Assembly (NCBI GenBank): GCA_963816145.1
Contig: CAWFJP010000030.1
Coordinates: 192,001 to 256,000 of the forward strand
Length of the DNA: 64,000 nucleotides
Direction: 5' to 3'
DNA from: an uncultured delta proteobacterium
GTDB taxonomy: Bacteria; Desulfobacterota; Binatia; UBA9968
Position numbers and translations under genes: made by a program
Part shown: piece by piece, positions 47,742 through 59,277 of the stretch
Layout of the letters: the number at the start of each line of letters is the position of its first letter
Numbering within the stretch: position 1 is the first letter of the stretch
The notes under the pieces: model-generated
Seen by the model: the letters and a program-made list of their open reading frames with translations, nothing else
The model's database searches: none
Told to the model about the DNA's origin: nothing

Positions 47742-47770
47742 TTGACATACTGGTATCTGACGGATAGCTT
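47742..47770 (+). promoter_or_regulatory. Sigma-70-like promoter of the amidase-actin operon
   Basis: TTGACA-N17-TAGCTT, 38 nt before ATG 47809. Confidence 0.55.
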
Positions 47771-47808
47771 TTTCTCAATTCGCGCGAGCTTTCTCGACAA
47801 TTTTTTAA

Positions 47809-48804
47809 ATGGCGGTCTCTGACAATACCAAGGCGAAACTCCTGCGCGGCGTGGTGCAGGATAACGTCGACATCGTCCAGGGCGTTCGGACCAAACGCGC
47901 CAGCAAGCGCAAAGTGTCGCTACGCTACTGGTTTTCAGCGGGCATCGGCGTCGCAGGGCTGGCCTATTTGACGGCCCCCTCGCAAGTGGTTTCCACGGCC
48001 AACACGACGCCAACCGATGCGATCGGCACAGTTTCTGCCACCAATATCGCGCAAACACCGGAATCCGCGGCGCCGCTCGATTCGCCCCGGCCGTTGGACA
48101 AAAAAGCAGTGCCGCTGGCGATCAAGCGGATCGTTATCGATCCTGGCCATGGCGGCGAGCCCGGCGCCATATCGGACTCGGGCGTCATGGAAAAAGAAAT
48201 CACCCTGGACGTGGCACTGCGCCTGCGCCGGCTCATGGCGAAAGAGCCCTATGAAATCCTCCTCACGCGCCAAACCGACCAATTGGTGTCGCTCGACAAG
48301 CGGGTGGCGTTTGCCAATGAAAACAAGGGCGATCTATTCGTCTCGATCCATGTCAACTCGATGGAACCGAAAACCCTTCGCGCCCTGGAAACTTATTATG
48401 TCGGCCCCACTGACGACCCGGCGACGCTCAGGCTGGCAAGCATCGAGAACAAGGACTCGGGCTACTCGCTATCGGACTATAAGAAGATCTTGGAAAAGAT
48501 CTATGTCGACGAGCGCCATGACGAATCCAGGATCTTGGCCAAAACGATCCAAGCCCAGCTGCATCATTCACTTAAACCCGTCAATCCGGCACTGGAAAAC
48601 CGCGGCGTCAAAACCGCCCCGTTTGTGGTCCTGATCGGCACGCAAATGCCGGCTATCCTGGTCGAGATCTCGGCGCTATCCAACGGGGAAGAAGTGAAGT
48701 TATTGACAAAAGAAGATTATCGCGAAAATATCGCCCTGGCCCTGCTCCAGGGCATCAAGAACTACGCGCGCAATTTCAACGTTCCCGCGAGGAAAGGCAA
48801 TTAG
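47809..48804 (+). CDS. N-acetylmuramoyl-L-alanine amidase (Amidase_3) with N-terminal tail and hydrophobic anchor
   Basis: IVIDPGHGG, EKEITL, LTR, FVSIHVN, GVKTAPFVVL....PAILVE...LSN. Confidence 0.93.
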   Translation: MAVSDNTKAKLLRGVVQDNVDIVQGVRTKRASKRKVSLRYWFSAGIGVAGLAYLTAPSQVVSTANTTPTDAIGTVSATNIAQTPESAAPLDSPRPLDKKAVPLAIKRIVIDPGHGGEPGAISDSGVMEKEITLDVALRLRRLMAKEPYEILLTRQTDQLVSLDKRVAFANENKGDLFVSIHVNSMEPKTLRALETYYVGPTDDPATLRLASIENKDSGYSLSDYKKILEKIYVDERHDESRILAKTIQAQLHHSLKPVNPALENRGVKTAPFVVLIGTQMPAILVEISALSNGEEVKLLTKEDYRENIALALLQGIKNYARNFNVPARKGN

Positions 48805-48807
48805 GTC

Positions 48808-49839
48808 ATGGAAGAAAGCAACGAACCCCTTTGTGTCGGCATCGATCTCGGCACCTCACGCAGCTCGATCTCCGCGTCCAACGGCGAACGCCATGTGATC
48901 GACAGCTACGTCGGTTGGCCCCTGGACATGGTGGCGCGCAAGATCGTCAAGAAAAGCGTATTAATCGGTCGCGAGGCGCTCGATAACCGCTCCATGCTCG
49001 ATCTGCGCCGCCCGCTCGAACGGGGCATCATGAAAGAAGGCTCGGAAAAGGACCAAGAAGCCGTGCAGGAGATCTTGAAACATCTAATCAATCTGGCCGG
49101 CATCAAACAAAAGGGTAAAAACAAGTCGAAAGTTCGCGCCGTGGTCGGCGTCCCCGCGGAAGCCTTTCGGGTCAGTCGGCAGAACTTGCGCAATACCATG
49201 GAAGGTATCGCCGACAGCGTCATGCTGGTTTCCGAGCCCTTTGCCGTGGCCTATGGGCTGGAAGCGCTGCTGCACGCCCTGGTGATCGACATCGGCGCTG
49301 GGACGGCGGACTTTTGCGTCATGCAAGGGCGCTATCCCACCGAAGACGACCAGCGAACTTTATCTGCCGCCGGTGATTCCATCGATGAGCAGTTGGAAAA
49401 ATTGATTCGCGAACACTACCCTGAGGCGCAGTTCTCGGTGCACATGATTCGCCAATGGAAGGAACGTTATAGCTTTGTCGGTGAACCCAAAGACCGGATT
49501 ATCGTTACCGCGCCGGTAAAGGGCAAAGTCACCGACCTCGATATTACTACTGAGATGCGCGCCGCCTGCGAAAGTATCCTGCCGCCGATCTGCGAGACCT
49601 TGCAAGATATACTATCGAAAGTGGAGCCGGACTTCCAGGACAAAGTCCGCAACAATGTCATCCTCGCCGGCGGGAGCTCCCTGATTAGCGGATTGACCGA
49701 TGCGATCCAGAAATCGCTGGCCGAACTTGGCGGCGGCCGGGCGACGGTAGTCAAAGATCCGGTATTCGCCGGCTGCGACGGCGGCTTGGCCATCGCCCGC
49801 GATGCGTCAAGTTCGGATTGGGAGAAGCTGTCGCTGTAA
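48808..49839 (+). CDS. MamK-like bacterial actin
   Basis: GIDLGTS, S.VGWP.D, R..LDLR.PL..G, VVGVPA, VSEPFAVAYGL, IDIGAGT.D.C.M.G..P...DQ.TL..AG, KE..SFVG, ACE...P, L....P..Q.....NVILAGG.S.I.GL, VKDP.F.GC.G.L..A; from memory these match MamK better than MreB. Confidence 0.85.
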   Translation: MEESNEPLCVGIDLGTSRSSISASNGERHVIDSYVGWPLDMVARKIVKKSVLIGREALDNRSMLDLRRPLERGIMKEGSEKDQEAVQEILKHLINLAGIKQKGKNKSKVRAVVGVPAEAFRVSRQNLRNTMEGIADSVMLVSEPFAVAYGLEALLHALVIDIGAGTADFCVMQGRYPTEDDQRTLSAAGDSIDEQLEKLIREHYPEAQFSVHMIRQWKERYSFVGEPKDRIIVTAPVKGKVTDLDITTEMRAACESILPPICETLQDILSKVEPDFQDKVRNNVILAGGSSLISGLTDAIQKSLAELGGGRATVVKDPVFAGCDGGLAIARDASSSDWEKLSL

Positions 49840-49865
49840 GTTCCGCCGGCGAATAATCCCAAGCC

Positions 49866-50210
49866 ATGGAAAGTTGGACGAACTGCTCGCTGGCGTTCGC
49901 CGCCGGCATAGGCGTGGGCATCGCCCTGATACACGTAAAGCCCTATCTATTCGCCGCCAAGAAACGCCGCACCGAGCTAGTCGTCGCGCGCAGCCGTATT
50001 CTTGCCGGTATCAAAGAAAAACATGAGGAAGAAATCTTAGATGAAGCCTTTCGCACCACCGAAGCGATTAAAGGCGAACTAGATAAATCGCTGCAAACAC
50101 TGCGACGCACTCTAAACGCGGTCACGATCCCGACGGTTCCCGACTCCCCACAGCTCAAACCGATCATTCAATTATCGAACCCAGTCAAGTCGGGGCCATC
50201 GACATCCTAG
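49866..50210 (+). CDS. Hypothetical small membrane protein with predicted helical/coiled region
   Basis: N-terminal hydrophobic LAFAAGIGVGIALIHV, then a charged helix; 26 nt after the actin gene. Confidence 0.6.
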   Translation: MESWTNCSLAFAAGIGVGIALIHVKPYLFAAKKRRTELVVARSRILAGIKEKHEEEILDEAFRTTEAIKGELDKSLQTLRRTLNAVTIPTVPDSPQLKPIIQLSNPVKSGPSTS

Positions 50211-59182: not shown

Positions 59183-59219
59183 AAAAAACCCCTACTTCAA
59201 TTCACTCGAAGTAGGGGTT
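59183..59219 (-). terminator. Riboswitch-controlled intrinsic terminator
   Basis: Minus strand aacccctacttc-gagtgaatt-gaagtaggggtt plus T run, overlapping the aptamer 3' end. Confidence 0.85.
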
Positions 59220-59266
59220 ATCAACTCGCAGTCGCGAATGGTTTAACTGGCGAACCCCATCGCCGT
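59211..59266 (-). ncRNA. Fluoride riboswitch (crcB motif)
   Basis: GGCGAUGGGGUUCGCC..UAAACC...GUUGAUAACCCCUAC directly upstream of crcB. Confidence 0.92.
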
Positions 59267-59277
59267 TGTTTTTTTTT

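Follow-up and report, generated by a model that had tools for sequence, protein, structure and literature searches.

MamK is known only as the actin of the magnetosome chain, and its relatives outside magnetotactic bacteria, BeeR for example, have no known function. What does such an actin do when its gene stands directly behind that of a peptidoglycan amidase? The question is raised by a locus of an uncultured delta proteobacterium (Desulfobacterota; Binatia; UBA9968) whose assembly (GCA_963816145.1, here G000) holds 7.8 Mb in 31 contigs, with a completeness of 99.47% and a contamination of 6.72%. The window is the whole stretch of 64,000 nucleotides that was analysed, positions 192,001 to 256,000 of contig CAWFJP010000030.1 (G000:C30:192001-256000). 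Between positions 47809 and 50210 of the window, three open reading frames (ORFs) are packed on the plus strand, encoding an amidase, an actin and a small protein (ORF3), with gaps of 3 nt between the first two and 26 nt between the last two. The coordinates, the strand and the 3-nt gap match exactly the three-gene layout given in an earlier note made from the sequence alone, which had proposed an undescribed module of a MamK-clade filament that positions a membrane-tethered wall hydrolase. We find that the core of the locus is a two-gene cytoskeletal module, made of a tail-bearing bitopic amidase and a MamK-family actin, and that the actin is not a magnetosome gene; a non-magnetosome MamK-type filament probably tethers and positions the wall amidase through the tail of the enzyme. 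The proposal of the earlier note was overturned neither by the grouping of the actin, nor by the distribution of the gene pair, nor by the search for magnetosome genes. The parts of the two core genes are as follows.

47809..48804, plus strand: bitopic N-acetylmuramoyl-L-alanine amidase of the AmiA/B/C type, 331 aa (Pfam Amidase_3, invariant catalytic residues)
47812..47877, plus strand: cytoplasmic tail helix of the amidase, residues 2-23, predicted actin-docking peptide (model, conserved motif K8..L12R....N19.D...G25)
47923..47982, plus strand: membrane anchor at about residues 39-58, after a Lys/Arg cluster at 27-38 (sequence, modelled helix 29-54)
47983..48126, plus strand: linker at about residues 59-106, Pro/Ala/Thr-rich and poorly conserved (model, consensus almost all 'x')
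48127..48771, plus strand: Amidase_3 catalytic domain, residues 107-321 (predicted local distance difference test score, pLDDT, mostly >90)
48808..49839, plus strand: actin-like ATPase of the MamK family, 343 aa, amidase-linked subfamily (NF040964, 5LJW, invariant nucleotide-binding motifs, tree)

Amidase and actin were found side by side well beyond the window. A scan for relatives with one genome per species found 176, of which the best 80 loci were kept; they come from metagenome-assembled genomes titled 'delta proteobacterium', Thermodesulfobacteriota, Syntrophobacter and Binatia at 75-95% identity, and also from Acidobacteriota (Thermoanaerobaculia, Holophagales) at 63-69% identity. In all but one of these loci (79/80), the gene immediately ahead of the actin encodes an amidase homologue. 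Since this set is biased to close relatives, we also used even samples of 301 Acidobacteriota and 301 genomes of the window's own phylum, counting as a carrier any genome with a match to the MamK model (in Acidobacteriota at E <=1e-60). Such an actin is carried by 25 of the 301 Acidobacteriota (~8%), and every one of the 25 has the amidase directly upstream (L029, L108, L109 and 22 further loci), showing with the 79 close loci that the adjacency is conserved elsewhere. The linkage is also kept in four distant loci whose actins are only 47-52% identical to the window's (L101, L104, L108, L109). In the sample from the window's own phylum, carriers number 15 of 301, with 13 above the cut-off; the amidase is adjacent in only three (G000, G026, G294), and the other 12, L098, L099 and L100 among them, have different neighbours. 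Within the window's class the actin occurs in 4 of 201 genomes, all of one family (f1; three of its 13 other genomes, including one of the four others in the genus), and the carriers of this family are amidase-linked in 3/3. Close relatives (83-94% identity) are abundant in public metagenome data, and one close cluster also contains a protein labelled Nitrospira (by protein label only).

Further kinds of neighbourhood were also seen. Directly upstream of the amidase and on the same strand, 28 acidobacterial loci have a gene for a PilZ-domain protein (~410-470 aa, with PilZ at the N-terminus; for example L029:3472-4881), which hints at a c-di-GMP input to the module in Thermoanaerobaculia and Holophagales. 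In the window's phylum, L098:7726-10343 and L100:7893-10719 hold tandem MamK-family paralogues (494 and 492 bits in G220), those of L098 separated by a 160-aa membrane/coiled-coil ORF; neither locus has an amidase, and their ORF lists show no magnetosome genes. Also in this phylum, seven of eight sampled genomes of family f25 (2.3-2.7 Mb) have a match to the MamK model, six of them above the cut-off; the f25 loci are L102:7745-11088, where the actin is preceded by ORFs of 117 and 663 aa without a Pfam family, L103 and L141-L143, and may represent another non-magnetosome MamK module.

The enzyme half of the pair is a wall amidase of the AmiA/B/C type that lacks the usual AMIN domain. Pfam Amidase_3 (PF01520) matches residues 108-318 at E 1.2e-47 and 162.6 bits, against a cut-off of 27, and in an alignment of 44 homologues the catalytic domain is the best-conserved part, with H114, E128, H181 and E286, which we take to be the zinc/catalytic residues of Amidase_3 (His-Glu-His plus Glu), invariant. 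By sequence and by fold alike, the top solved relatives are E. coli AmiA (8C2O), Bartonella AmiB (3NE8) and E. coli AmiC (4BIN), 8C2O being the top Foldseek match of the modelled structure (E 5.2e-18). The window's amidase resembles AmiA, AmiB and AmiC of E. coli in sequence, fold, catalytic residues and an insertion at about residues 200-260 that aligns, in the sequence alignment only, with their regulatory region; alignments to AmiA/B/C continue through residues 200-260, and matches to CwlV, CwlD and LytH end near 197-208. Unlike these three enzymes, it has neither a twin-arginine signal nor an AMIN domain (no Pfam match), and instead bears a cytoplasmic tail and a membrane anchor. Its AlphaFold model (mean pLDDT 76.9) has helices at residues 2-23 and 29-54 and a confident catalytic domain; pLDDT falls below 50 at residues 53-86, and residues 55-106 have no secondary structure. 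The same order of parts, a conserved helix, a Lys/Arg cluster, a hydrophobic helix, a linker and the enzyme, is common to all 44 homologues listed, and by the positive-inside rule the tail would be cytoplasmic and the enzyme periplasmic. Pfam match, sequence and modelled helices thus agree with the Amidase_3 protein with a basic N-terminal tail of ~38 aa and a hydrophobic anchor that had been read from the translation.

The tail carries a motif of its own. Within the first ~25 residues it reads roughly K-x-x-L-L-R-x-x-V-x-x-N-V-D-x-x-x-G, followed by basic residues and the membrane helix; across 44 sequences N19 is invariant, and K8, L12 and G25 are each conserved in at least 90%. Variants of it occur in all four of the distant clade-B amidases (KKVILREIYEQNL, RDNILKAVYEDNL, RTKILRGVLDQNR, RSRILRGIYEENQ). 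Among 22 loci of the even acidobacterial sample, the motif was found by pattern in 13 and by eye in eight more, one of these eight with D replacing N, and the L133 sequence is cut off by the contig end. The pattern had no match in the ORFs of nine loci whose actin has no amidase. Across the whole G000 genome it matched three ORFs, and it is N-terminal and ahead of a membrane helix in the amidase only.

We modelled the complex of the actin, supplied as a 41-row alignment, with tail residues 1-40, supplied as a 44-row alignment, in one job. The interaction prediction score from aligned errors (ipSAE) was 0.79, 0.81 and 0.79 in three runs, compared to 0.00 for the best of three controls; the runs have at least 73% of contacts in common, and the pLDDT of the partner is at least 62. 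In the predicted interface, tail residues 4-26 face actin residues 124-128, 138-155 and 174-176 and the C-terminal helix 329-341, with N19 placed against residues 138-140 at the lowest expected error of the interface. We read this site as the hydrophobic cleft between actin subdomains IA and IIA, presumably the generic partner-binding cleft of actins. One interface position sorts the actins by neighbour: at position 128 each of the 23 amidase-linked actins examined has R or K, compared to L, V, I, A or F in the 11 shown from unlinked loci and from a clade of magnetosome-like context. Four other interface residues, R175, L155, A333 and D337, mark the window's larger clade and no other. The model supports binding of the tail to the actin, and the contact through the cytoplasmic tail suggested in the earlier note gains support from the conserved motif together with a predicted complex that passes its controls.

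The actin half of the pair sides with MamK. All six motifs that the earlier note had quoted are present in the translation, and the best family is MamK (NCBIfam NF040964) at 381.2 bits, 19 under its cut-off of 400 and 160 bits ahead of the next family; amidase-linked actins of the four distant loci (L101, L104, L108, L109) pass this cut-off at 408-442 bits. The BeeR model (NF053558) scores 220.9 bits against a cut-off of 530, and two MreB models score 72.5 against 293 and 59.5 against 365.75, which places the protein outside both families; Pfam assigns it to the actin superfamily (MreB_Mbl, E 1.1e-23; Actin, E 3.8e-16). Among solved structures the best match is Magnetospirillum MamK (5LJW; 259 bits, E 5e-76, end to end), compared to 149 bits for BeeR (8R2N) and 59 for MreB (1JCE). 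Residues D13, G15, T16, D161, G163, G165, T166, G288 and G289 are invariant among 41 homologues, and the first actin motif begins at residue 10, leaving no N-terminal extension. Compared with MamK (5LJW, 5LJV, 5JYG), the window's actin is about 45% identical by eye, has the same length and nucleotide-binding motifs and likewise lacks an N-terminal extension, but it differs in its amidase partner, its basic position 128, its score 19 bits below the cut-off and a genome in which no magnetosome markers were found.

Family scores, structures and tree agree in placing the actin with MamK and not with MreB or Hsp70. From a search of representatives (1.84 billion) that gave 187 clusters at E <=1e-30, we built a quick maximum-likelihood tree of 99 rows, comprising 66 full-length representatives, 32 locus actins including the window's, and the genome's own MreB as outgroup. 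Two clades hold the amidase-linked actins: the larger has 22 rows and a support of 100, the smaller 5 rows and a support of 96. Both lie in an unresolved 37-row group together with a clade holding L099 and L107, for which the label 'magnetosome-like' is taken solely from L099, where a cation diffusion facilitator (CDF) transporter with MamB and MamM as best matches (below their cut-offs) and a FeoB-like gene accompany an actin of 481 bits against the MamK model. The alphaproteobacterial MamK clade of Magnetospirillum was not located in this tree, in which the labels and PDB scores of the representatives are uninformative: ten representative clusters bear 'rod shape-determining protein' labels, with one 'MamK family actin-like protein [Nitrospira sp.]' and one Gemmatimonadota label, and P0154, P0130, P0140 and P0126 match 5LJW at 226-299 bits, about equal to the window's 259. 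The window's clade nests among acidobacterial sequences, which together with its patchy distribution suggests, as far as sequences can tell, a transfer of the module between phyla. Another clade of the tree, P0137-P0170, comprises 14 proteins of 523-1232 aa with a C-terminal MamK-like domain; their long N-terminal parts had no Pfam family in the ten proteins scanned.

Is the actin nevertheless part of a magnetosome system? The MamI model has no match in the 99.47% complete genome, the top MamP and MamQ matches, at 33.7 and 85.9 bits, stay far below their cut-offs of 300 and 250, so that no magnetosome island is shown in G000 by these three markers, the search not extending to MamB, MamM, MamE, MamO and MamL. 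Nor does the module stand in for housekeeping systems. G000 encodes a separate MreB on contig C11, FtsA (464 bits) and FtsZ (444 bits) both on C1, and on C15 a second Amidase_3 protein of the usual septal type, with an AMIN domain (PF11741, E 1.9e-11); with these encoded elsewhere, the window's pair is a third actin and an extra amidase. Further Amidase_3 genes are present in all five other module-bearing genomes checked. The assembly itself, at 7.8 Mb with 6.72% contamination, is larger than those of the four other genomes of the genus (3.9-5.7 Mb), one of which has the module; given the excess and the single other carrier, the explanation is either a mixed bin or an accessory module.

The remaining features of the locus lie on both sides of the pair.

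47742..47770, plus strand: promoter-like TTGACA-N17-TAGCTT, unproven, ~40 nt upstream of the amidase start (letters only)
49866..50210, plus strand: ORF3, 114 aa, with an N-terminal membrane helix, KKRR and a helical cytoplasmic part (translation)

The third protein is as the earlier note described it, with a hydrophobic N-terminal segment, then KKRR, then a helical part, but the role of adaptor between filament and enzyme that the note had offered it does not hold in general. Behind the actin, a tblastn match to ORF3 is present in 14 of the 80 loci, which are without exception closest relatives, and also in L110; ORF3 is therefore accessory and outside the core, and cannot be a general adaptor. 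Partial matches in L004, L006 and L008 (query residues 52-85, 52-95 and 7-92, at actin identities of 94-95%) indicate that this small gene changes fast even within the clade. ORF3 had no NCBIfam, PHROG or PADLOC match and only a weak, sub-threshold one to Pfam DUF4094; no sequence likeness links it to the 160-aa ORF that separates the paired actins of L098, and its best protein-atlas score, 0.77, is under the lead threshold and uninformative.

The promoter quoted in the earlier note is present in letters at 47742-47770, but it is not significant: TAGCTT agrees with the consensus at only three of six positions, for which reason the consensus scan did not call it, and that scan found one promoter-like site in the region, on the other strand, compared to 1.4 +/- 1.2 in shuffles. 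Read by eye, TTGAC(A/T)-N17-TA..TT recurs with similar placement in three of eight aligned relatives (L010, L013, L015) and is absent from the four closest. The terminator scan found no plus-strand terminator after ORF3. Contigs from RNA libraries of four soil/sediment metatranscriptome runs contain short pieces of the 5' end of the amidase gene and of the actin gene, mostly at least 99% identical to the window with one per run at only 90-95%, and one 271-nt contig spans the junction of actin and ORF3; we do not count these contigs as evidence, since DNA carry-over is possible and they prove neither that the genes are transcribed, nor that they share one transcript, nor where it would start.

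The flanking genes encode a 3-keto-disaccharide hydrolase, DUF488, UbiD, an ornithine-cyclodeaminase (OCD)/mu-crystallin family protein on the strand opposite to the module, two NMT1 binding proteins and MsrB. Among them no cell-shape, division or magnetosome gene was seen, in line with the earlier observation that mreC/mreD, ftsZ and mam genes are not nearby: the flanks are metabolic. A fluoride riboswitch (RF01734) lies farther off on the minus strand at 59205-59273 of the window (42.6 bits against a gathering score of 34).

How does the pair compare with systems already described? Actin-family polymers that bind a short peptide or domain of a membrane or adaptor protein are familiar from FtsA-FtsN, MreB-RodZ and ParM-ParR; to our knowledge none of the partners FtsN, RodZ and ParR is itself a wall hydrolase, and no sequence likeness to these systems came up, though none was looked for. 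In working principle the closest match is the bactofilin BacA with the M23 endopeptidase LmdC, where, in the portions of the source available to us, a hydrolase is recruited via a conserved cytoplasmic motif and the genes are clustered in many bacteria (Pohl et al. 2024, eLife, PMC10945521). Both systems cluster the gene of a polymer with that of a bitopic wall hydrolase bearing a cytoplasmic motif; as far as those portions allow the comparison, the window's module differs in using a nucleotide-dependent actin, an Amidase_3 rather than an M23 enzyme and a (predicted) helix rather than a beta-hairpin, and in belonging to other phyla. Of what marks a cytoskeleton-tethered hydrolase, the module has the adjacency and the tail motif, and the binding is predicted. 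BeeR, a MamK-related three-stranded actin of Verrucomicrobiota with non-magnetotactic hosts and unknown function, is defined by a disordered N-terminal extension of 30-50 residues, and no amidase partner has been reported for it (Bergeron et al. 2025, PMC11929497). The window's actin lacks this extension and, with 220.9 bits against 530, does not belong with BeeR. We found no description of a pairing of a MamK-type actin with an amidase in the literature searched, supplements lying outside its scope, and the portions of PMC10653835 available to us make no mention of amidases with non-magnetotactic MamK relatives.

Taken together, these observations lead us to the mechanism that we consider probable. 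The MamK-family ATPase would polymerise in the cytoplasm. The amidase, in place of periplasmic targeting by an AMIN domain, would be held by its cytoplasmic helix, basic cluster, membrane helix and flexible linker, with the tail helix docking in the actin cleft (138-155, 174-176 and helix 329-341). The filament would thereby tether the enzyme across the membrane and decide where, and possibly when, the wall is cut, and the amidase in turn would tie the filament to the membrane. The tail may bind the side of the filament or its end, and by analogy with AmiA/B/C the enzyme may need a LytM-type activator. The cellular process served could be, for example, local wall splitting for separation, for shape or for a specialised structure.

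Several points weigh against this reading. First, binding, filaments, localisation and activity are predictions from sequence and model, and that the filament polymerises, truly binds the tail and positions the enzyme is what we infer. Second, calibration of the mark that the complex model passed gave 58 passes among 80 solved complexes and 2 among 110 mismatched pairs, counts that are only rough for user-supplied alignments such as ours; and since the docking cleft appears to be generic to actins, the model may owe its pass in part to a resemblance to solved actin-peptide complexes. Third, in ParM-ParR the corresponding cleft also makes the longitudinal filament contact and stays accessible only in monomers or at one end of the filament; if the same holds here, the tail could bind only there, and the mechanism would change. 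Fourth, most interface residues are common to all MamK relatives or specific to clade A, which leaves position 128 as the sole one to separate the groups; since each group is also a clade, the pattern is suggestive but not independent evidence. Fifth, one locus of the window's own clade (L024:832-3374) encodes an actin 75% identical to the window's that keeps all interface residues, and has a major facilitator superfamily (MFS) transporter in place of the amidase. Sixth, the module is patchy, present in one of the four other genomes of the genus and in none of 187 in other families of the class. Lastly, the branch of the best tree that sets both amidase-linked clades (27 rows) on one side has a support of 79, which is not significant, and four of the 27 rows have no demonstrated amidase (L024, which lacks one, and the representative proteins P0121, P0124 and P0162).

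In a more specific version, which we regard as unlikely, the tail would sit in the barbed-end cleft, and the amidase would ride growing or treadmilling ends as ParR does on ParM, so that a cytomotive machine moves a periplasmic cutter and writes a line or pattern of cuts. Were this true, no MamK-type actin before it would have had an enzyme as cargo, and the family would show here an ancestral-like use from which the positioning of magnetosomes could derive.

Control could also run in the opposite direction, the tail being an anchor, nucleator or cap for a filament that carries other cargo or relays the state of the wall inwards, with cutting secondary. In favour of this, the predicted cleft is, in other actins such as ParM, free only on monomers or one end, no membrane-binding element is visible in MamK-family actins themselves, and other MamK-family loci pair their actin with small membrane or coiled-coil proteins rather than enzymes (the 160-aa ORF of L098; ORF3 of the window). 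However, none of the catalytic residues varies across 44 homologues, and no other part of the protein is as well conserved as the catalytic domain, which argues that enzyme activity and tail are selected together, and we think this reversal rather unlikely.

Quite improbable, in our judgement, is that the two proteins are co-transcribed and functionally related without touching, the tail binding some other cytoplasmic partner or the membrane. The predicted contact does come from a single structure-prediction job, and in 28 loci the PilZ protein encoded directly upstream could be the partner of the tail; but the PilZ gene is absent from the window's clade, tail motif and actin always occur together, the unrelated-partner controls gave 0.00, and R/K at position 128 tracks the presence of the amidase.

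A mobile-element cassette, pairing a ParM-like partition actin with a phage-type lysin, is very improbable. The amidase does match a phage endolysin family (phrog_435, 96.8 bits) and the actin a phage partition family (phrog_691, 45.1 bits), and both the patchy distribution and the nesting of the window's clade in acidobacterial sequences suggest transfer; these scores, however, are far below those for Amidase_3 (163) and MamK (381), the enzyme is of the bitopic AmiA/B/C type, the flanks hold no integrase or phage gene, the UbiD and NMT1 neighbours are common to 12-13 close relatives, and PADLOC gave no meaningful defence-family match for the module proteins. Finally, a genuine or remnant magnetosome MamK is almost certainly not what the window encodes: MamK is the best-matching family, if 19 bits below cut-off, and the amidase-linked clades share an unresolved group with the L099/L107 clade, but 79 of 80 loci have an amidase next to the actin, and the nearly complete genome lacks MamI and has no MamP or MamQ above cut-off.

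A filament that tethers and positions a wall amidase through its tail would give one large group of non-magnetosome MamK relatives a concrete, testable partner. The group is widespread, occurring in Acidobacteriota, in some members of the window's phylum (under Thermodesulfobacteriota and delta proteobacterium titles) and in Binatia-titled records. It also bears on the evolution of magnetosome positioning, because the amidase-linked clades sit beside the magnetosome-like clade in the tree. If the contact between tail and actin is true, it would be a new answer to how bacteria aim dangerous wall hydrolases from inside the cell, parallel to that of bactofilin and LmdC but with a dynamic, nucleotide-driven polymer.

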